The notes under the pieces were generated by a model that saw only the letters and a list, made by a program, of their open reading frames with translations, was not told where the DNA came from and made no database searches. From IMG/VR virus record IMGVR_UViG_2645727843_000010: a stretch of DNA of 19,413 bases; one strand, given 5' to 3'. Below, piece by piece: positions 3,901 to 13,336 of the stretch (position 1 is its first letter; every line of letters starts with the position of its first letter). A program made the translations under genes and the position numbers. This stretch comes from a virus. Its lineage: Duplodnaviria > Heunggongvirae > Uroviricota > Caudoviricetes.

Positions 3901-4172
3901 GTATTCGTATCGAAATTGGCGAACGTTATGTCGTTACCAGTGACAGCTTTCAGTTTATTCTCCACGAGAAAAAGAGAGCGGAAAGCGGTAAAAACGCCGG
4001 TCAGGAATGGCTGGCGGTGGTTGGTTATTATCCGAAATTAAGCCAGCTCGTTTCCGGCCTGATGCATCACGATATTCTGACCGGAAGCGCAAAGTCTTTT
4101 GCTGATTTAAACGCGCAGGTTGAGCAACTCAGCAAGCGTTGTTCAGAGGCTTTTGGCTCATATGGCCGTTAA
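3897..4172 (+). CDS. Hypothetical early protein, 91 aa, P2 orf83-like
   Basis: ATG at 3897 overlaps the upstream stop (ATGA); 3' end overlaps the A start by 11 nt. Confidence 0.6.
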   Translation: MSIRIEIGERYVVTSDSFQFILHEKKRAESGKNAGQEWLAVVGYYPKLSQLVSGLMHHDILTGSAKSFADLNAQVEQLSKRCSEAFGSYGR

Positions 4173-6447
4173 AGCCTCCGGGCGTTTTGTCCCTCCGTCA
4201 GCATTTGCCGCAGGCACCGGTAAGGCGTTTACCGGTGCTTATGCATGGAACGCGCCACGCGAGGCTGTCGGGCGCGAAAGACCCCTTACACGTGACGAGA
4301 TGCGTCAGGTGCAAGGTGTTTTATCCACGATTAACCGCCTGCCTTACTTTTTGCGCTCGCTGTTTACTTCACGCTATGACTACATCCGGCGCAATAAAAG
4401 CCCGGTGCACGGGTTTTATTTCCTCACATCCACTTTTCAGCGTCGTTTATGGCCGCGCATTGAGCGTGTGAATCAGCGCCATGAAATGAACACCGACGCG
4501 TCGTTACTGTTTCTGGCAGAGCGTGACCACTATGCGCGCCTGCCGGGAATGAATGACAAGGAGCTGAAAAAGTTTGCTGCCCGTATCTCATCGCAGCTTT
4601 TCATGATGTATGAGGAACTCAGCGATGCCTGGGTGGATGCGCATGGCGAAAAAGAATCGCTGTTTACGGATGAGGCGCAGGCTCACCTGTATGGTCATGT
4701 TGCTGGCGCTGCACGTGCTTTCAATATTTCCCCTCTCTACTGGAAAAAATACCGTAAAGGGCAGATGACCACGAGGCAGGCATATTCTGCCATTGCCCGT
4801 CTGTTTAACGATGAGTGGTGGACTCATCAGCTTAAAGGCCAGCGTATGCGCTGGCATGAGGCGTTACTGATAGCTGTCGGGGAAGTCAATAAAGACCGTT
4901 CTCCTTATGCCAGTAAACATGCCATTCGTGATGTGTGTGCACGCCGCCAGGCAAATCTGGAATTTCTTAAATCGTGTGACCTTGAAAACAGGGAAACCGG
5001 CGAGCGCATCGACCTTATCAGTAAGGTGATGGGAAGTATTTCTAATCCTGAAATTCGCCGGATGGAGCTGATGAACACCATTGCCGGTATTGAGCGTTAC
5101 GCCGCTGCAGAGGGTGATGTGGGGATGTTTATCACGCTGACCGCGCCGTCAAAGTATCACCCGACACGTCAGGTCGGAAAAGGCGAAAGTAAAACCGTGC
5201 AGCTTAATCACGGCTGGAACGATGAGGCATTTAATCCAAAGGATGCGCAGCGTTATCTCTGCCGTATCTGGAGCCTGATGCGCACGGCATTCAAGGATAA
5301 TGATTTACAGGTCTACGGTTTGCGTGTTGTTGAACCACACCACGACGGAACGCCGCACTGGCATATGATGCTTTTTTGTAATCCACGCCAGCGTAACCAG
5401 ATTATTGAAATCATGCGTCGCTATGCGCTCAAAGAGGATGGCGACGAAAGAGGAGCCGCGCGAAACCGTTTTCAGGCAAAACACCTTAATCGGGGCGGTG
5501 CTGCGGGGTATATCGCGAAATACATCTCAAAAAACATCGACGGCTATGCACTGGATGGTCAGCTCGATAACGATACCGGCAGACCTCTGAAAGATACTGC
5601 CGCGGCTGTTACTGCATGGGCGTCAACGTGGCGCATCCCGCAATTTAAAACGGTTGGTCTGCCGACAATGGGGGCTTACCGTGAACTACGCAAATTGCCT
5701 CGCGGCGTCAGCATTGCTGATGAGTTTGACGAACGCGTCGAGGCTGCACGCGCTGCCGCAGACAGTGGCGATTTTGCGTTGTATATCAGTGCGCAGGGTG
5801 GGGCAAATGTTCCGCGCGATTGCCAGACTGTCAGAGTCGCCCGTAGCCCGTCGGATGAAGTTAACGAGTACGAGGAAGAAGTCGAGAGAGTGGTCGGCAT
5901 TTACGCGCCACATCTCGGCGCGCGTCATATTCATATCACCAGAACGACGGACTGGCGCATTGTGCCGAAAGTTCCGGTCGTGGAGCCTTTGACTTTAAAA
6001 AGCGGCATCGCCGCGCCTCGGAGTCCTGTCAATAACTGTGGAAAGCTCACCGGTGGTGATACTTCGTTACCGGCTCCCACACCTTCTGAGCACGCCGCAG
6101 CAGTGCTTAATCTGGTTGATGACGGTGTTATTGAATGGAATGAACCGGAGGTCGTGAGGGCGCTCAGGGGTGCATTAAAACACGACCTGAGAACGCCAAA
6201 CCGTCAGCAAAGAAACGGAAGCCCGTTAAAACCACATGAAATTGCACCATCGGCCAGACTGACCCGGTCGGAAAGAATGCAAATTACCCGTATCCGCGTT
6301 GACCTTGCTCAGAACGGTATCAGGCCGCAGCGATGGGAGCTTGAGGCGCTGGCGCGTGGCGCGACCGTAAATTATGACGGGAAAAAATTCACGTATCCGG
6401 TCGCTGATGAGTGGCCGGGATTCTCAACAGTAATGGAGTGGAAATGA
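4162..6447 (+). CDS. A: P2 A protein, rolling-circle replication initiator / nickase, 761 aa
   Basis: The track ORF starts at a TTG at 4120; ATG at 4162 (MAVKASGRF...) gives 761 aa, the P2 A length as recalled. Near-identity to P2 A over the whole length from memory. Confidence 0.95.
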   Translation: MAVKASGRFVPPSAFAAGTGKAFTGAYAWNAPREAVGRERPLTRDEMRQVQGVLSTINRLPYFLRSLFTSRYDYIRRNKSPVHGFYFLTSTFQRRLWPRIERVNQRHEMNTDASLLFLAERDHYARLPGMNDKELKKFAARISSQLFMMYEELSDAWVDAHGEKESLFTDEAQAHLYGHVAGAARAFNISPLYWKKYRKGQMTTRQAYSAIARLFNDEWWTHQLKGQRMRWHEALLIAVGEVNKDRSPYASKHAIRDVCARRQANLEFLKSCDLENRETGERIDLISKVMGSISNPEIRRMELMNTIAGIERYAAAEGDVGMFITLTAPSKYHPTRQVGKGESKTVQLNHGWNDEAFNPKDAQRYLCRIWSLMRTAFKDNDLQVYGLRVVEPHHDGTPHWHMMLFCNPRQRNQIIEIMRRYALKEDGDERGAARNRFQAKHLNRGGAAGYIAKYISKNIDGYALDGQLDNDTGRPLKDTAAAVTAWASTWRIPQFKTVGLPTMGAYRELRKLPRGVSIADEFDERVEAARAAADSGDFALYISAQGGANVPRDCQTVRVARSPSDEVNEYEEEVERVVGIYAPHLGARHIHITRTTDWRIVPKVPVVEPLTLKSGIAAPRSPVNNCGKLTGGDTSLPAPTPSEHAAAVLNLVDDGVIEWNEPEVVRALRGALKHDLRTPNRQQRNGSPLKPHEIAPSARLTRSERMQITRIRVDLAQNGIRPQRWELEALARGATVNYDGKKFTYPVADEWPGFSTVMEWK

Positions 6448-6899
6448 TGGCAAAAATTCACGAGGTAAAGCTGCACGCAAAATATTTTGACCTTGTGCTG
6501 GAAGGAAAGAAACGCGCAGAGTTTCGGAAAAATGACCGTAATTATGAGCGCGGGGACACGTTGATTTTGCATGAATGGGTGCAGGGTGTGTATACGGGGC
6601 GAAAGGTTGAAGCCCGGATAACAGATGTTACTGACTTGTCAGACTGGCTGGAAGATTATGTCTTGCTAAGTATTGAGCTGCTTAATACAGGCGCATATGA
6701 GTTTGTGAACTGGAAAGAACTTAGTGAGCGTGGTCTGGTATTCAGAATTAATCATGAAATTATGCATCAGCTCGGCCTTGCTGTTGTGTATGAACCAGAG
6801 ACGGGGATGTCTGGCGGGGCAGTGGTTGGTGCGGATGGGATATGGAACTATTCAGATGAACAGGTGGAGCGTGCACAGCAAAACGGGTGGCTTGGATAA
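6444..6899 (+). CDS. ASCH/DUF3850-like domain protein, 151 aa, at the P2 orf91 position
   Basis: ATG at 6444 overlaps the A stop (ATGA). The N-terminal ~50 aa (KIHEVKLHAKYFDLVLEGKKRAEFRKNDRNYERGDTLILHEW) resembles the ASCH-like fold. Confidence 0.65.
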   Translation: MMAKIHEVKLHAKYFDLVLEGKKRAEFRKNDRNYERGDTLILHEWVQGVYTGRKVEARITDVTDLSDWLEDYVLLSIELLNTGAYEFVNWKELSERGLVFRINHEIMHQLGLAVVYEPETGMSGGAVVGADGIWNYSDEQVERAQQNGWLG

Positions 6900-7105
6900 T
6901 GCACAGAATACCAGGCGAGATACCGCAGCATAAAACTAAAAATATCAAGCTGATGGCCATTGTTCACCGTCTACAGCAGATTATGGTCAACGAAAATCTG
7001 ACGCCCGATGAGCTGGTCGGGTGTGCCGAAATAGTCCGGGATAATTACGTATGGCTTAACTATATCGGTCAGCCCAGCGCTGCACCGCCACCACGCAGAC
7101 GATAG
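6899..7105 (+). CDS. Hypothetical small protein, 68 aa
   Basis: ATG at 6899 overlaps the upstream stop (TAATG); the track start at 6887 is GTG. No recognisable domain. Lies at the backbone/cargo boundary. Confidence 0.35.
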   Translation: MHRIPGEIPQHKTKNIKLMAIVHRLQQIMVNENLTPDELVGCAEIVRDNYVWLNYIGQPSAAPPPRRR

Positions 7106-7294
7106 AGAACGCAGCCAGCTCAGGATTGGCGGGGGATAGAATAACGAGCATAGTGATGCGATTAGACAAACAGACTGACTGGTACACTTAGGATGGTTAT
7201 AGTGGTTTCTAAGTGCTTTAGCGATACATCTGGTGGACTGTTTTACCAACCTCAGAGTTAGCTGAATTTTTAACAAAATACCATTTTGATAGAT

Positions 7295-7322
7295 TTGCCT
7301 AATTTATTAATTAAACTATACT
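7295..7322 (+). promoter_or_regulatory. Candidate sigma70 promoter for the 78-aa / membrane-protein operon (-35 ttgcct, 16-bp spacer, -10 tatact)
   Basis: Hexamers read from sequence in the AT-rich intergenic region about 90 nt upstream of the 7414 start. Weak -35. Confidence 0.3.
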
Positions 7323-7413
7323 GGACTTATACACAGTGTTCTGTTAGTTGTTAGGTTGGTAAGATATTGTGAGGAGGTGATTACTATCTTGGCATCAATC
7401 AAGTGGAGGTTAA

Positions 7414-7650
7414 ATGATGAATATATTTGAACGTATTATAGGTAAAGCTGCTATTGAAAAGGAAAGAGAACTGGCGAGGAGGCTTGAAGCATCTGGAACA
7501 AACACTGTTGAGGTGGTAGGTCGAGGCGCGATTATCACGTCTAAAGAAGACTTGGCAAGCTCAGATACAGTAAAATTGATGAAAATTAAAGCAAGAAAAA
7601 TAGTTTCTGAGCAGGTAAAGCAAGAAGAAAAAATGGCTAAAGGGAATTAA
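7414..7650 (+). CDS. Hypothetical small charged protein, 78 aa, first gene of a two-gene cargo operon
   Basis: ATG at 7414 with GGAGG 5 nt upstream. K/E-rich and hydrophilic. Stop is 2 nt before the next ATG. Confidence 0.6.
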   Translation: MMNIFERIIGKAAIEKERELARRLEASGTNTVEVVGRGAIITSKEDLASSDTVKLMKIKARKIVSEQVKQEEKMAKGN

Positions 7651-7652
7651 TA

Positions 7653-8414
7653 ATGTTTGCTTTATTAATTATTCCATTACTTGTGAGTGGTTATATTGTA
7701 TTAACCACTCATCCTTATCATTTCTATAGATTACACCGTTATGATGGGCAGTTGTTATATATGAAGTCAGCCGCCTTTGGTCTGTGGTGTTTTATATGGA
7801 CATTGATTATAGCTTACTTAATAAAATGGATATGTCCGAGCTTCCATCCTGTCACGATGGTTCGGGAACAATTAGATCTCAAACTTAGTGACAATGGTAC
7901 TGAAAGAATCATAGGATGGATGATTTTACTTTCATGTGGAACGATATTTTTGGCTTGGATATGGAGTGTCGGTGCTAGATATTTGGTTATATATAGAGCT
8001 AAAATTATAAATTATATCCAAGGGGTAAAGGCTGCCAATATTGATTATGAGAATCTTGTCATGCTAAGGATGAGGCAAGAGCTTATTAATGATAATCCAA
8101 TGGATGAAATATTTTTTGATTCGTTAGTTGATAGACGTTCAATACTTATTACGTTGCAAAATAAAAAGACATATGTAGGAATTGTTAACGCATTAGGTGA
8201 GCCTAACGAGAAAGAAGGACCTAACCAGTATGTTTCAATCTATCCTATTATCTCTGGGTATAGAGATAAGGATTCATTGAAAGTAATCTTGGTGAATGAA
8301 TATAGAGAGCTTGAGGATGCTGATACTAGTATCATCTTTCCACTAAAAGAAATTTCGCAAGTTTCTTGGTTTGATATGGATATTCATAAAATAGTTGAAA
8401 ATAATAAGGTGTAG
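7653..8414 (+). CDS. Hypothetical membrane protein, 253 aa: three predicted N-terminal TM helices plus a ~145-aa soluble C-terminal domain
   Basis: ATG at 7653. Hydrophobic segments at about residues 1-19, 41-63 and 87-109. AT-rich codon usage unlike the phage backbone. No family recognised. Confidence 0.75.
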   Translation: MFALLIIPLLVSGYIVLTTHPYHFYRLHRYDGQLLYMKSAAFGLWCFIWTLIIAYLIKWICPSFHPVTMVREQLDLKLSDNGTERIIGWMILLSCGTIFLAWIWSVGARYLVIYRAKIINYIQGVKAANIDYENLVMLRMRQELINDNPMDEIFFDSLVDRRSILITLQNKKTYVGIVNALGEPNEKEGPNQYVSIYPIISGYRDKDSLKVILVNEYRELEDADTSIIFPLKEISQVSWFDMDIHKIVENNKV

Positions 8415-8417
8415 TAA

Positions 8418-8442
8418 ATGGTCACCTATAAAAGGTGACCAT
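8418..8442. terminator. Bidirectional hairpin between convergent cassettes (atggtcacct-ataaa-aggtgaccat)
   Basis: Perfect 10-bp stem with 5-nt loop, between the stop at 8414 (+) and the stop at 8448 (-); T/A-rich flanks on both sides. Confidence 0.6.
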
Positions 8443-8447
8443 AATGC

Positions 8448-10712
8448 TTATTTTTGACGAATCCTGATTTTTGGTTGTTCACGAACAACAATATCAGTTT
8501 CTTTCCAACCAAGATTATTTATTTCAACCTCGGCTTCGTTGTAGACTGTAGTAGAATTGGCAAGAGATCTTAACGTAATAGCCAATACAGCACGTTGAGG
8601 TGAAGATAGAGGCTCTTGCTCTGCTCGTCTCTGAACATCAAGTTTAAGTCTCCATTGCTCCCCATTTATACCTTGCGGAAATTGTTTTCTATAAACTTTG
8701 ACTGGAGACCATTTGAAGCCATTTTCTATCAGTACCTTTTCAAATAATTCACTCTTTTCTTTTATTTGTGGAATTTTTCCGCTATGTATCCATTTAGCGT
8801 TAACTGGATCATAAGTGTAAGTCCCGAATGACACATCCACATTAGAACGGCAATATTCAGATGGGTAGTCATAATCAAGCGGTGGAGAATAAACGAGTGT
8901 CATAATAATTTCACCTGTGAATTTTCCATCCTCAGTACGTAATGACTGTGGTATTACAAATGGCGTTCTACTGAATTCAATACCTTCTCGGGTATCTATT
9001 TCAAATAGAAATGTAATCTCATTTTTATTGCAACCAATAATATCATTTATATGATCGCTTGGGCGTCCAAATCCTTGATAATTAAACGCATAATGCTCCG
9101 TTTTGGCTGGTGAGTTTTTTAACGCAGAATGAATTAATAGTGCCTTGATACGTTCAGGCGATGGTGAAATAGAACCATTAACATCTAGTTCATGCCACAG
9201 TGATGCCGCTAAACTTGAGATTAACGGTGCTGATAAACTTGTGCCAATACTTTCGCAAAGAGCATTGTCCTCGCCAATAGCTATGATTCCGGTATGTTCA
9301 CAGTTTAATTTACTGTCACAATTACCTCCAAAGTGATTTATCTCTGGTTTGGGTATAAAGGCTGGGCCGGGACCTCTTCTAGAAAAAGATGAAGGTTCAA
9401 ATCTTTTGACCACAGAGTCAGACGATTCTAAATGGGCAACTGAGCCAACAGTTAATGAACGAACAGAATCTGCGGGGGCTGATATTCTGTCATGCCCACC
9501 TAATTCTTGAGGAGGCCAGGTTCGTTGAGGATCATAAATGTAGTTGCCGGATGCTACGACGAAAAGACAATCATGCTCATCATGAAGTGCATTTAAAAAA
9601 TGCCCCAATTCAGAGAAGCTGTCTTCAGAACATGGGGATTGACAACCTAATGACAGATTCCATACACGTACTTCTGGATAGGTGGTCACAGCCTCTCGGA
9701 TAGCTTTCATTAATTGTGGCAATTTGAGCGTACCATCTTTGGGAAAGGCTGCAACATCAACAATTTCAGCTTGGCATTGAGGAAAACCAGCATAGTTATT
9801 CAACCATCTTCCATTAATTGCTAAACTTGCAACCATGTTCCCATGAGAATAGTCGTGTTCTCCTTTTACTAAATCTAAACTATCCCAAATCCATGGCCTA
9901 AGTATGTTGTTATTGGGATCGACTCCGCTATCTATAATTCCGAGTAGTGGATAATGTTTATCCTCTTGAGGTAAGGGAAAATCATCTAGGTCTAGAGTTT
10001 CAGCAGGAATATATTGCGATACTGTATGAGTAAGACCAAATGTTGGCATAGGTTCTAATTTTCGTATGCCAATAAAACTTGCCAGTTGGGCGATGTTATC
10101 ATTCCCTTTTACTTCATATATACTCAAATCTGAACTGATATCATACTTTTTGGGTTTTTGTATTCCTAGTTCATCTGCAAATTCCATTAATTCTTTGTCG
10201 ATACTGCGGTTAGTTGTTCTATCTTTATGGTCAAAGAGTTTCAGAAGAAAACTATCTGATTTATTTTTATCTATAACATCATGGTTAAGACTAAAAGGTT
10301 CGATCTTTTCAATTACAGCAATATGTACTGTTCCATTATGAGAATTAGTGCTATTTTCAATTTTTTTGCGAAGTTGTGCTAACCCTTTTTCAGTAACACT
10401 TATAAGTAATTCTCCAAAATTATCACTGCCTATTACGGGACATGTATTATCACCTAATAGGCTTGATGGGCGATGTGACTTAGCAAGAGCTTTTTCATGA
10501 AGAGTAACTCTAGCCACCGCCGGTATATTGGGCCATTTTTTAAATGAGCTCTGGAAAAAATTTTTAACGTCATCGACTTCTTGTTTGAGTCTATTTTTTA
10601 GACTAGTTGTTACTGTTCGGATAGGTTGTTTCTTTCCGAAATTATATGTTTTTTCAGTAAAATCTTGAGGTGTCGCCTCAATTATTTTTATTGGTCTTTC
10701 TTTGTTACTCAT
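8448..10712 (-). CDS. Subtilisin-like serine protease (peptidase S8), 754 aa; IetS-like
   Basis: Catalytic motifs in canonical order: Asp (GIIDSGVD), His (YSHGNMVASLA), oxyanion Asn (VVASGN), Ser (GTSLSAPLISS). ATG overlaps the upstream ATPase stop (ATGA). Confidence 0.9.
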   Translation of the reverse strand: MSNKERPIKIIEATPQDFTEKTYNFGKKQPIRTVTTSLKNRLKQEVDDVKNFFQSSFKKWPNIPAVARVTLHEKALAKSHRPSSLLGDNTCPVIGSDNFGELLISVTEKGLAQLRKKIENSTNSHNGTVHIAVIEKIEPFSLNHDVIDKNKSDSFLLKLFDHKDRTTNRSIDKELMEFADELGIQKPKKYDISSDLSIYEVKGNDNIAQLASFIGIRKLEPMPTFGLTHTVSQYIPAETLDLDDFPLPQEDKHYPLLGIIDSGVDPNNNILRPWIWDSLDLVKGEHDYSHGNMVASLAINGRWLNNYAGFPQCQAEIVDVAAFPKDGTLKLPQLMKAIREAVTTYPEVRVWNLSLGCQSPCSEDSFSELGHFLNALHDEHDCLFVVASGNYIYDPQRTWPPQELGGHDRISAPADSVRSLTVGSVAHLESSDSVVKRFEPSSFSRRGPGPAFIPKPEINHFGGNCDSKLNCEHTGIIAIGEDNALCESIGTSLSAPLISSLAASLWHELDVNGSISPSPERIKALLIHSALKNSPAKTEHYAFNYQGFGRPSDHINDIIGCNKNEITFLFEIDTREGIEFSRTPFVIPQSLRTEDGKFTGEIIMTLVYSPPLDYDYPSEYCRSNVDVSFGTYTYDPVNAKWIHSGKIPQIKEKSELFEKVLIENGFKWSPVKVYRKQFPQGINGEQWRLKLDVQRRAEQEPLSSPQRAVLAITLRSLANSTTVYNEAEVEINNLGWKETDIVVREQPKIRIRQK

Positions 10713-11872
10713 AATATCTCTCTATAATTCTTAGTTAGCCTTGACACTTTAGCATTTGAAAGCCCTAGTATTTTTGCTATCTTTCGTATTGTAAATCTTT
10801 TGGGATTGTATTCTCTGAGAGTGGTCACAATCTTTATAAGTAAATTATCTTCTTCATCAAATGTAACTCCCTTCGCTTCTAAGATAGCCTCGACTAAAAA
10901 TCGGGTATCGATTTGTTTATTATTGTAAACCAGAGCATGTCGCTCAGATCTTAAGCAGCATTGTTCTATAAATGAGCAGTTTAGCCCTGATGATATTTCC
11001 GCAAGGTCATCAACAAAATCGTCATATGTAGCTTTTATGTTTGAATATTGTTCAAATAGTTGTTTTCTGACTTCAAAATCAGGCAATCCAATAGATATTC
11101 TATACTCAAAGCGCCTCCAAACTGCGCTATCTAGAAGATTTTCATGATTACTTGCAGCAATCAATATTGTTTCTTCAGGTAGATTGTCAATATTTTGCAA
11201 TAAAGAAACCACCACCCTCTTCAGTTCACCTAACTCATGCTGATCATCTCTAGCCTTTGCTAGAGAATCTAGTTCATCTAGAAATAAAACACATGGTGCT
11301 TTACTTGCATACTCAAATAGCTGCCTGATATTTTTAGAAGTAGACCCCAGATATGATGAGACTAAGGAGTCACATCTTGCAGTAAGAAGCGGTAAATTTA
11401 GACAGGATGCAATATATTTTGATGTCAAGGTTTTACCACAACCTGGTGGCCCATATAAAATCATAGAGGATGTCACGCCAAGACCGGCATCCTTTAATTC
11501 TTTAGCTCGTTCAGTGAAAGTCAAAAATTCTTTAATTTTTTTCAGAGTGCTATCTTTCAACAATGGGAGTTGAATTTCAGAAGACGGTTGAGTTACGTCT
11601 GCTAAATCAAATTTAGTTTCTTTATCTACAGGTAATGTATCAAGACGTTCAAAAATAGGTGATGTACTGCGTGATACTTTCTGCAAGTTAAACGTGTTTT
11701 TATCTTGAATACTACCTCTAATGGCTGAAGCAAGCTCAGGCAGCCCCATAGAATCATAGGAACGCGCGAGTTTCGAAGCCTGCCGAACAAAAGCAACTTT
11801 ATCCCCTTTGAGTCCAAGACTGATAAGCTGCGAAAGTATCTCGTTTGTGGTCATTTGTGATACAAACCTCAT
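10709..11872 (-). CDS. Classical AAA+ ATPase, 387 aa; IetA-like
   Basis: Walker A (GPPGCGKT), Walker B (VLFLDELD), sensor-1 Asn (IAASN), arginine fingers (AVWRRF). No strong Shine-Dalgarno seen, so the start is less certain (alternative Met 6 codons in). Confidence 0.88.
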   Translation of the reverse strand: MRFVSQMTTNEILSQLISLGLKGDKVAFVRQASKLARSYDSMGLPELASAIRGSIQDKNTFNLQKVSRSTSPIFERLDTLPVDKETKFDLADVTQPSSEIQLPLLKDSTLKKIKEFLTFTERAKELKDAGLGVTSSMILYGPPGCGKTLTSKYIASCLNLPLLTARCDSLVSSYLGSTSKNIRQLFEYASKAPCVLFLDELDSLAKARDDQHELGELKRVVVSLLQNIDNLPEETILIAASNHENLLDSAVWRRFEYRISIGLPDFEVRKQLFEQYSNIKATYDDFVDDLAEISSGLNCSFIEQCCLRSERHALVYNNKQIDTRFLVEAILEAKGVTFDEEDNLLIKIVTTLREYNPKRFTIRKIAKILGLSNAKVSRLTKNYREIL

Positions 11873-12113
11873 TAATCTGTTGTCTAAATGGCTTATAGGT
11901 GAGACAAATTTCTATTTTAATGTAGTTTATATGTATTTTGGTGAAACGAACACTATGTTTTACATAAATCTTTCAGGTTTGGAGTTCTTGGAGGGCATAG
12001 AGTTGCATCAATTTGCATTCTAATTAGACTTTTTTATTGCTATCGTATTCTACATGTGACTAGGTCTGCCCTTCCTGATGCGTTTGCATTAAAACCTCCC
12101 CATGAAGCGGGCG

Positions 12114-12132
12114 GGCGAGGCGGGGAAAGCAC
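12114..12132. other. Putative cos cohesive-end sequence ggcgaggcggggaaagcac
   Basis: Matches the P2 19-nt cohesive end as I recall it. Sits in a GC-rich block just downstream of Q, where P2 has cos. Confidence 0.55.
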
Positions 12133-12274
12133 TGCGCGCTGGCGGTGGTGCGGATTTTATTTTTTCAGCGTCTGAGCGCGTCGTGACGGCGCTTAGTCTG
12201 CCCGTTGAGGCGTTGGTGTGTCTGCGGGGTGTTTTGTGCGGTGGTGAGCGTGTGAGGGGGTGATGACGGGGTGT

Positions 12275-12296
12275 AAAAAAGCCGCCCGCAGGCGGC
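12275..12296 (-). terminator. Rho-independent terminator after Q (GCCGCC-TGCG-GGCGGC then T6 on the minus strand)
   Basis: GC stem plus a U-tract immediately 3' of the Q stop. Confidence 0.7.
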
Positions 12297-12301
12297 GATG
12301 T

Positions 12302-13336
12302 TCAGCCGTTGTCAGTGTCCAGTGAGTAGTTTTTAAATCGGATGACCTCCTGACCGAGCCAGCCGTTTATCTCGCGGATCCTGTCCTGTAACGGGATAAG
12401 CTCATTGCGGACAAAGACCTTTGCCACTTTCTCAATATCACCCAGCGACCCGACGTTCTCCGGCTTGCCCCCCATCAACTGAAAGGGGATGCGATGCGCG
12501 TCCAGCAGGTCAGCGGCGCTGGCTTTTTTGATATTAAAAAAATCGTCCTTCGTTGCCACTTCACTGAGCGGGATAATTTTAATGCCGTCGGCTTTCCCCT
12601 GTGGGGCATAGAGAAACAGATTTTTAAAGTTATTGCGGCCTTTCGACTTAACCATGTTTTCGCGAAGCATTTCGATATCGTTGCGATCCTGCACGGCATC
12701 GGTGACGTACATGATGTATCCGGCATGAGCGCCGTTTTCGTAATACTTGCGGCGGAACAGCGTGGCCGACTCATTCAGCCAGGCAGAGTTAAGGGCGCTG
12801 AGATATTCCGGCAGGCCGTACAGCTCCTGATTAATATCCGGCTCCAGCAGGTGAAACACGGAGCCGGGCGCGAAAGGTGTCGGCTCATGGAAGGACGGCA
12901 CCCACCAGTAAACATCCTCTTCCACGCCACGGCGGGTATATTTTGCCGGTGAGGTTTCCAGTCTGATGACCTTACCGGTGGTGCTGTAACGCTTTTCCAG
13001 AAACGCATTACCGAACACCAGAAAATCCAGCACAAAGCGGCTGAAATCCTGCTGAGAAAGCCACGGGTGCGGGATAAACGTTGAAGCCAGAATATTGCGT
13101 TTGACGTAAATCGGTGAGCTGTGATGCACGGCAGCACGCAGGCTTTTTGCCAGACCGGTAAAGCTGACCGGTGGCTCATACCATCTGCCGTTACTGATGC
13201 ACTCGACATAATCCAGAATGTCACGGCGGTCGAGTACCGGCACCGGCTCACCAAAGGTGAATGCCTCCATTTTCGGGGCGCTGGCGGTCATTTTTTTTGC
13301 CGCAGGTTGCGGTGTTTTCCCTTTTTTCTTGCTCAT
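12302..13336 (-). CDS. Q: Portal vertex protein, 344 aa
   Basis: ATG (cat at 13334-13336). Length equals P2 Q as recalled; strong recognition. Start overlaps the P stop. Confidence 0.95.
   Translation of the reverse strand: MSKKKGKTPQPAAKKMTASAPKMEAFTFGEPVPVLDRRDILDYVECISNGRWYEPPVSFTGLAKSLRAAVHHSSPIYVKRNILASTFIPHPWLSQQDFSRFVLDFLVFGNAFLEKRYSTTGKVIRLETSPAKYTRRGVEEDVYWWVPSFHEPTPFAPGSVFHLLEPDINQELYGLPEYLSALNSAWLNESATLFRRKYYENGAHAGYIMYVTDAVQDRNDIEMLRENMVKSKGRNNFKNLFLYAPQGKADGIKIIPLSEVATKDDFFNIKKASAADLLDAHRIPFQLMGGKPENVGSLGDIEKVAKVFVRNELIPLQDRIREINGWLGQEVIRFKNYSLDTDNG

Follow-up and report, generated by a model that had tools for sequence, protein, structure and literature searches.

What does a P2-like prophage carry in the AT-rich segment between its replication gene A and its cos site, and do the genes found there belong together? 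We approached these questions in a 19,413-bp stretch of DNA (IMG/VR record IMGVR_UViG_2645727843_000010, Caudoviricetes), referred to here as the window, in which a variable cargo island of 4,960 bp spans positions 7119–12078. The island holds four genes arranged as two convergent cassettes: on the minus strand ietA and ietS, which encode an AAA+ ATPase and a subtilase of the IetAS family, and on the plus strand a pair of genes for a 78-amino-acid (aa) protein and a 253-aa membrane protein. We find that all four genes are strictly co-inherited and that they form a stable unit with one IetAS lineage, an association that is new here. The cargo is probably a single, evolutionarily coherent cassette of four genes in two convergent operons with a common hairpin terminator, in which the pair would be a membrane-acting module that works with IetAS.

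The four genes are inherited as a unit

Linkage between the two cassettes was assessed in 131 loci fetched around homologues of the membrane-protein gene, and these loci are the sample for all neighbour counts given here. Among them, every intact homologue of the 253-aa protein with at least 54% identity has convergent IetS and IetA genes 24–48 nucleotides (nt) away, and none of the homologues below 50% identity has IetAS alongside. Close relatives of the pair are without IetAS only in Arsenophonus endosymbionts, where the copies are frameshifted. The four-gene block resides in P2-like prophages of Escherichia coli, Enterobacter, Citrobacter, Scandinavium and Rahnella, in a 186-like prophage of Yersinia, in a chromosomal island of Pectobacterium flanked by insertion sequences, in an integrative element of Providencia with integrase, ParB and RepB genes, and in an E. 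coli lambdoid prophage, where it lies between the replication genes and hok. Over 36 locus pairs drawn from nine loci, the pairwise identities of the four proteins are correlated with r = 0.92–0.99, the value for the membrane protein against IetS being 0.99. The four proteins thus co-diverge, and the two cassettes have not exchanged partners. This IetAS lineage is present in 15 complete E. coli genomes, and close relatives of the pair in exactly the same 15; on plasmids, IetS and the pair were not found together. The searchable literature holds no mention of an association between IetAS and the pair, and a search by the four protein accessions returned nothing outside the tables of Rousset et al. 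2022. A lineage that has kept the membrane pair while its sequences diverged by about 45%, and while it moved from one mobile element to another of unrelated kind, offers a concrete handle on the mechanism of IetAS.

Two sets of loci illustrate the range of settings. In the lambdoid prophage of E. coli NRZ103545, the block (6446–11285 of the locus) adjoins the hok/gef toxin gene and lies between the replication genes ydaU/ydaV and the nin-region-like DUF1367/DUF1364 genes; the cassette thus occupies, besides the P2-type site, a phage hotspot of another kind. In Arsenophonus, which are insect endosymbionts, the membrane-protein gene is in fragments, a state that fits decay after loss of the partner cassette as well as general genome erosion.

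A small protein coupled to a membrane protein with an Sm-like domain

The plus-strand pair begins with the gene for the charged 78-aa protein (7414–7650, phrog_37504) and continues after a gap of 2 nt with the gene for the 253-aa membrane protein (7653–8414, phrog_3630). Neither protein has a match in PADLOC, Pfam or NCBIfam, and both PHROG families are without an assigned function. The 253-aa protein has three transmembrane (TM) helices, at residues ~2–20, 42–62 and 87–110, and its charge distribution fits an orientation with the N terminus outside and the C terminus inside. The cytoplasmic C-terminal part folds as a five-stranded bent β-barrel (~164–239) that superposes on Sm/Hfq structures. 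The barrel differs from the small β-barrels of Sm/Hfq/LSm and WYL proteins in that sequence identity to them is only 7–19% and in that it is fused to three TM helices. MscS-type channels likewise combine three TM helices with an Sm-like β domain and may provide an analogy for this architecture. The most conserved segment of the 253-aa protein is its first cytoplasmic loop, RLHRYDGQLLYMK.

An exhaustive profile search recovered 2,550 clusters of homologues of the 253-aa protein (at 50% identity) at E ≤1e-3, of which 1,212 remain at E ≤1e-10; nearly all members are 240–310 aa long, and none of the clusters has a Pfam domain or a name. A structure search with Foldseek against BFVD gave no significant whole-chain match. 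The half of the cargo that is annotated as hypothetical is a widespread family without a Pfam domain but with a defined architecture, and its recognition as such is new here.

An open reading frame (ORF) of 59–115 aa ends within a few bases of the membrane-gene start in 117 of the 131 loci, and the small proteins it encodes have a common core motif, RVVGRGxxxIxPxE...AxxIV. The recurrence of the upstream ORF and the common motif together mark the pair as a conserved two-gene module with translational coupling. An AlphaFold2 model of the 78-aa protein consists of a helix, a β-hairpin with the VVGRG segment at its turn, and a second helix, with a predicted local distance difference test (pLDDT) of 72 and a predicted template modelling score (pTM) of 0.33; low global confidence is what we would expect of a protein that folds on a partner. 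A profile built from 30 of the small proteins has no match in Pfam or among PDB sequences and reveals no recognisable antitoxin DNA-binding fold of the AbrB/MazE, ribbon-helix-helix, helix-turn-helix or Phd type. The idea of an AbrB/MazE relationship had been suggested by the VVGRGxxxIP motif; it was set aside, the best PDB-sequence match having an E value of 0.01 over 26 residues, which is at chance level.

A divergent IetAS lineage

The minus-strand cassette is a member of the IetAS family, to judge from profile matches and catalytic motifs. The ietS gene (8448–10712) encodes a 754-aa S8 subtilase that matches PADLOC model PDLC02197 (E 1e-273, 908 bits, covering residues 1–747 of 749) and Pfam Peptidase_S8. 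The ietA gene (10709–11854) encodes a 381-aa AAA+ ATPase that matches PADLOC model PDLC02196 (E 9e-132, 438 bits) and Pfam AAA. As in other IetAS (IteAS, Gao_Iet) systems, ietA lies upstream of ietS on the same strand, here with a 4-nt overlap at 10709–10712, and the profile matches are full-length. At the level of motifs, the catalytic Asp (IIDSGV, from residue 259), His (HGNMV, from 290) and Ser (GTSLSAP, from 490) of IetS are intact, as are Walker A (GPPGCGKT) and Walker B (LDELD) of IetA. The NCBIfam scores lie below the equivalog cut-offs (782 against 900 bits for IteS and 387 against 510 bits for IteA), and for this reason RefSeq names the proteins only "S8 family peptidase" and "AAA family ATPase". 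These scores also lead us to assign the island's genes to a divergent lineage of the family; the closest plasmid-encoded IteS is 44% identical.

The start of ietA was revised in the course of this work. A 387-aa ORF from an ATG at 11872 was replaced by the ATG at 11854, which is the start in RefSeq and in the Enterobacter and Citrobacter orthologues and which sits 12 nt past a conserved GAGG; the start at 11872 is probably wrong.

According to the IetAS literature, the system was first found as a plasmid-stabilising toxin–antitoxin pair in which the protease is the toxin and the ATPase the antitoxin; it acts in defence by abortive infection and can be triggered by a single phage protein. A helicase-bearing variant, ietHAS (Nucleic Acids Research 2026), requires its third component. 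What sets the lineage in the island apart from canonical IetAS is the convergent two-gene membrane module, which always accompanies it and which canonical IetAS lacks. The parallel with ietHAS is that of an IetAS lineage with a recruited extra component, which in ietHAS is a SNF2 helicase that is required and modulates toxicity. The helicase, however, is encoded in the same operon as its IetAS, whereas in the island a separate, convergent operon supplies the extra component, a small protein together with a 3-TM/Sm-like one, and a requirement for it is hypothetical.

The pair also occurs without IetAS

Most members of the pair family reside in genomes as stand-alone modules. In 17 complete E. 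coli genomes, a lambdoid prophage carries a 48%-identical pair between its integrase and attachment site. For instance, in E. coli SA186 and ST95-32 (6000–7070 of the locus) it sits between the integrase and the host gene glaH, at the end of a prophage of the ymfK/yfdPQR type. In P22-like prophages the pair is found in the ejection-protein/immI neighbourhood, where sieA is found, and in Pseudomonas it forms a small insertion among housekeeping genes. Seventy viral contigs in IMG/VR carry the pair. Clustering of the neighbours within 4 kb in the 131 loci revealed no third conserved partner, the recurrent neighbours being only integrase, gpA, portal, terminase and ejection proteins. The main indirect argument for an exclusion or defence module is that these are classic prophage slots for accessory genes that act on competing phages. 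A further example comes from Salmonella phage SEN5 (NC_028701.2, 2923–3944), a P2-like phage from another genus of Peduoviridae, in which a divergent pair of 58 and 281 aa with a 1-nt overlap occupies the same gpA–cos hotspot, with a DNA methyltransferase gene beside it and no IetAS.

Several known systems resemble the pair in location and general design. RexAB and Kiwa KwaAB have a two-component architecture of sensor and membrane effector to which that of the pair may be comparable. These systems and P22 SieA share with it an accessory location in prophages and a multi-pass membrane protein with or without a soluble partner, and none has sequence similarity to it. SieA, also a multi-pass inner-membrane protein, is encoded in the same neighbourhood as the pair in P22-like prophages. 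SieA proteins of types A–C are ~160–200 aa long (162–164 aa for P22 SieA), with 3–4 TM helices and an FxRYPxEAxxFNK motif, and have no sequence similarity to the 253-aa protein. Homology to SieA was rejected: a tblastn search of 50,697 phage records with the 253-aa protein gave no P22 match, and both length and motif differ.

How the cassette may act

We envision a scenario in which IetA restrains a toxic IetS until a phage protein triggers the system, whereupon released IetS would kill or arrest the cell, as described for other IetAS systems. The 78-aa soluble protein is translationally coupled to an inner-membrane protein with three TM helices and a cytoplasmic Sm-like barrel, and could serve as its regulator or antitoxin. 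The membrane protein may oligomerise through its Sm-like domain into an assembly that blocks entry or that gates, damages or collapses the membrane. The pair would thus constitute a membrane-acting anti-phage or exclusion module, and in this lineage it would work together with IetAS. The location, the variability of the site, the identity of IetAS, the architecture of the pair and the strict co-inheritance of the four genes are shown; that the pair acts against phages, and that it is coupled biochemically to the protease, we infer.

Several observations weigh against this reading. The modules can be separated: the pair stands without IetAS in more than 100 loci, and canonical ietAS occurs without the pair in an integrative and conjugative element and on plasmids. 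In published assays, ietAS alone is active. The two cassettes are convergent and are not co-transcribed, and their co-divergence may trace to a single ancestral juxtaposition that subsequently moved as a block. No family annotation in PADLOC, Pfam or NCBIfam ties the pair to defence, the model of the 78-aa protein has low confidence, and the two IetAS proteins themselves score below the NCBIfam equivalog cut-offs.

These points bear on three other explanations of the locus. The one to which we give most room, while placing it somewhat below an even chance, is that two independent systems travel together, the pair being an autonomous superinfection-exclusion, abortive-infection or toxin–antitoxin module that adds a second, complementary layer with no molecular interaction; the linkage would then follow from mobility of the whole cassette, with a benefit that is perhaps additive or synergistic. 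Each module has been found alone many times, each has its own putative promoter region with a likely terminator between them, recombination in the conserved flanks swaps hotspot cargo in whole units, and the literature describes defence systems that often co-localise and synergise without direct contact. Such independence is harder to reconcile with an adjacency, an orientation and a 24–48-nt spacing that have been kept down to ~50–55% aa identity in at least four unrelated kinds of mobile element, when cargo in this hotspot otherwise reshuffles to the extent of 1,650 arrangements. Nor does it account for the lack of any intact relative of the pair with at least 54% identity that is without IetAS, the degraded Arsenophonus copies being the sole exceptions.

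At the other extreme, the four proteins could make up a single IetAS variant in which IetS, once a phage is sensed, cuts either the 78-aa protein or the membrane protein within its linker and so releases a depolarising Sm-ring effector. That all four genes are strictly co-inherited and diverge congruently, that they co-occur in 15 of 15 E. coli genomes, that ietHAS sets a precedent with its essential third component and that transmembrane effectors are common endpoints of abortive infection all speak for such wiring; the genes, however, are convergent rather than operonic, and the pair family mostly lacks IetAS, so that the pair must have a trigger of its own. We consider this model doubtful as it stands. 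Just as tentatively, the island could be a previously unrecognised four-component IetAS variant in which the pair was recruited as a membrane effector or sensor arm under IetS control, and by extension the stand-alone pairs (~2,550 clusters, in prophages across Proteobacteria) would represent a new family of membrane-acting anti-phage or exclusion systems. A role outside defence, as an addiction module that stabilises the cargo or the prophage or as a lysogenic-conversion membrane protein with some other benefit to the host, seems unlikely to us, and less likely than either a complementary layer or a protease-wired pair. The layout of a small gene followed after 2 nt by a larger, possibly toxic gene is toxin–antitoxin-like, ietAS was first found as a plasmid stabiliser, and the Pseudomonas copies sit among housekeeping genes; against this, the pair is enriched in prophage slots typical of exclusion and defence genes, including two different occupants of the P2-family hotspot, and a DNA-binding domain of antitoxin type is not recognisable in the small protein. 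We continue to favour a single cassette in which the membrane-acting pair works with IetAS. Learning what the pair does would give an annotation to thousands of proteins now called hypothetical and would probably extend the known membrane-based systems of immunity or exclusion by a new module; should the pair turn out to be baggage with no link to IetAS, the island only adds to the catalogued occupants of a hotspot that is already known.

The island as cargo of the P2-family hotspot

The segment is swappable cargo of the cos-proximal defence hotspot in a P2-like prophage. Its locus runs from gpA and orf91 (the ASCH gene) to cos and gpQ, the place where P2 itself carries tin and old. By megablast of positions 6400–12400 against 5,426 complete E. 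coli genomes, 2,154 genomes have the flanks and only 12 have the whole island. Between the same flanks, other P2-like prophages carry a near-empty 280-bp segment with a 54-aa ORF, a cytosine methyltransferase with an ATPase, or ParB with a methyltransferase, and P2 itself carries tin/old. None of the sequenced phages in INPHARED carries the island. Rousset et al. 2022 defined the gpA–gpQ locus as an anti-phage hotspot and counted 1,650 arrangements in it, of which one, in their Table S5A (WP_021570510 + WP_000457800 + WP_000066157 + WP_000210436), corresponds to the four proteins encoded here; in their curated table ietAS is the seventh most frequent occupant, in a variant that differs from that of the island. 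The island and its reading as hotspot cargo are thus already catalogued.

The reading made from the sequence alone, that an island takes the place of tin/old in the P2-family anti-phage hotspot, agrees with the site, with the conservation of the flanks and with Rousset et al. 2022. Alignment to other P2-like prophages revealed conserved flanks around variable content, the island not being conserved backbone in most P2-like phages. Its flanking genes and sites (gpA, orf91/ASCH, cos, portal Q) and the combination of conserved flanks with variable low-GC cargo are those of the known P2-family hotspot, from which it differs in nothing essential, except that its cargo is less common there (in 12 of the 5,426 genomes).

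Composition sets the island apart from the backbone. Its GC content is 0.365, and all 92 windows of the same size outside it range from 0.459 to 0.557, which bears out the drop in base composition that had been noticed between the A/ASCH block and the cos-proximal block. A sliding GC profile has a sharp trough at ~7200–12000, and GC content at third codon positions is 0.25–0.30 in the four island genes and 0.47–0.72 in backbone genes; by both measures, each of them lower in the island, its composition is foreign to the backbone. The borders come from blastn against other P2-like prophages, in which the backbone match runs to 7118 and resumes from 12079–12085. The island assigns to neither strand as a whole, and its edges, first placed at 7106 and 12060, were off by about 13–20 bp at each end. 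Its description as two convergent cassettes is matched by the ORF listing and by the RefSeq annotation of an identical E. coli prophage.

In many complete E. coli chromosomes the prophage lies at record position 2239, and in the two that were inspected gpA is the first gene of the record (1–2286). It looks as if an assembly-rotation tool had taken gpA for the chromosomal replication initiator.

Terminator and promoter candidates

The two cassettes meet in a 33-nt gap between convergent stop codons that contains a perfect palindrome, ATGGTCACCT-ATAAA-AGGTGACCAT, with a 10-bp stem and a 5-nt loop (8418–8442, on neither strand in particular). The two strands fold with z-scores of −4.8 and −5.5, and none of 200 shuffles folds as well. 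In homologous blocks, the gap between the stop codons holds hairpins of unrelated sequence in eight of nine cases, some of them flanked by textbook runs of A and T, and this conservation of position with unrelated sequences supports a conserved role as a bidirectional terminator. The island's own U-tracts are weak: the run on the plus strand begins 8 nt past the stem, and the minus strand has only three U. The palindromic terminator proposed from sequence is thus confirmed as a palindrome and is likely a terminator shared by the two operons.

Upstream of the pair, a promoter-like site (TTGCCT-16-TATACT, 7295–7322, plus strand), found by scanning, overlaps a 26-nt block (7315–7340, ACTATACTGGACTTATACACAGTGTT) identified by alignment. 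This block differs by only 1–2 substitutions across the island and its Enterobacter and Citrobacter counterparts, while the remaining upstream region is ~50% diverged, making 7295–7340 a candidate promoter/operator of the two-gene module. On the other side of the island, the region upstream of ietA extends from 11855 to 12078 (minus strand) and, in alignments, contains conserved blocks: a Shine–Dalgarno GAGG block (11852–11870), a −10-like element TATAAACT (11924–11931), an adjoining 18-mer GTGTTCGTTTCACCAAAA (11936–11953) and a tandem ATGCAA motif (12003–12018). These blocks are a candidate promoter/operator of ietA. The ietA promoter region lies ~190 nt from cos and is directed leftward, as is the old–tin promoter of P2, and the ietA–ietS operon is transcribed away from cos like P2 old/tin.

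Both AT-rich intergenic stretches recognised from the sequence exist, with a different extent on the right, where the region spans 11855–12078 because ietA starts at 11854 and not at 11872. They had been singled out as deserving scrutiny for further small genes or RNAs; none was detected, only the conserved promoter-like blocks. Their length (295 and 224 nt, long for a phage genome), their AT-richness, the short conserved blocks in each and mechanical ORFs at 6971–7276 (minus strand) and 11808–12023 (plus strand) could point to additional small proteins or regulatory RNAs. Yet neither region has an Rfam match at E ≤1 or an unusual fold (z-scores of the minimum free energy −0.19 and −0.58, the latter for the right region), a repeat search found no notable repeats, no ORF in them is conserved, and RefSeq annotates nothing there. 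In the left region (7119–7413), conservation in the Enterobacter and Citrobacter islands, which are 80% identical, is confined to ~7271–7413; not even these islands conserve 7119–7270, and indels break the ORFs. The conserved blocks, moreover, sit where promoters are expected, and we regard further genes or RNAs in these regions as very improbable.

Backbone around the island

The backbone runs in the order integrase, C, cox, B, replication gene A (4120–6447), ASCH/DUF3850 gene, small ORF, island, cos, portal gene Q and terminase P. On the left, the shoulder at 6411–7118 is 95–96% conserved in other P2-like prophages up to 7118 and comprises an ASCH/DUF3850+DUF7415 gene (6411/6447–6899, plus strand, by Pfam and PHROG) and an ORF of 68–72 aa (6887/6899–7105, plus strand, phrog_11386). 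Homology to reference P2 stops at 6667, within the ASCH/orf91 gene, and most E. coli P2-like prophages match through 7118; the DUF7415 extension at the C terminus of the ASCH protein and the 68-aa ORF thus form a semi-variable shoulder that has no counterpart in P2. On the right lie the P2-type cos 19-mer GGCGAGGCGGGGAAAGCAC (12114–12132, plus strand, by sequence match) and portal gene Q (12302–13336, minus strand, by ORF list and RefSeq). Alignment to linear P2 ends exactly at 12132, the annotated cosR.

Two terminator-like hairpins belong to the backbone: one at 12135–12152 (plus strand), directly right of cos, and a GC-rich one with a T-run at 12281–12296 (minus strand), just downstream of the portal stop codon. 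The window is identical to IMG/VR contig IMGVR_UViG_2695420394_000006, and an identical prophage is present in E. coli DCE7, where it is integrated adjoining pflA and ycaD.

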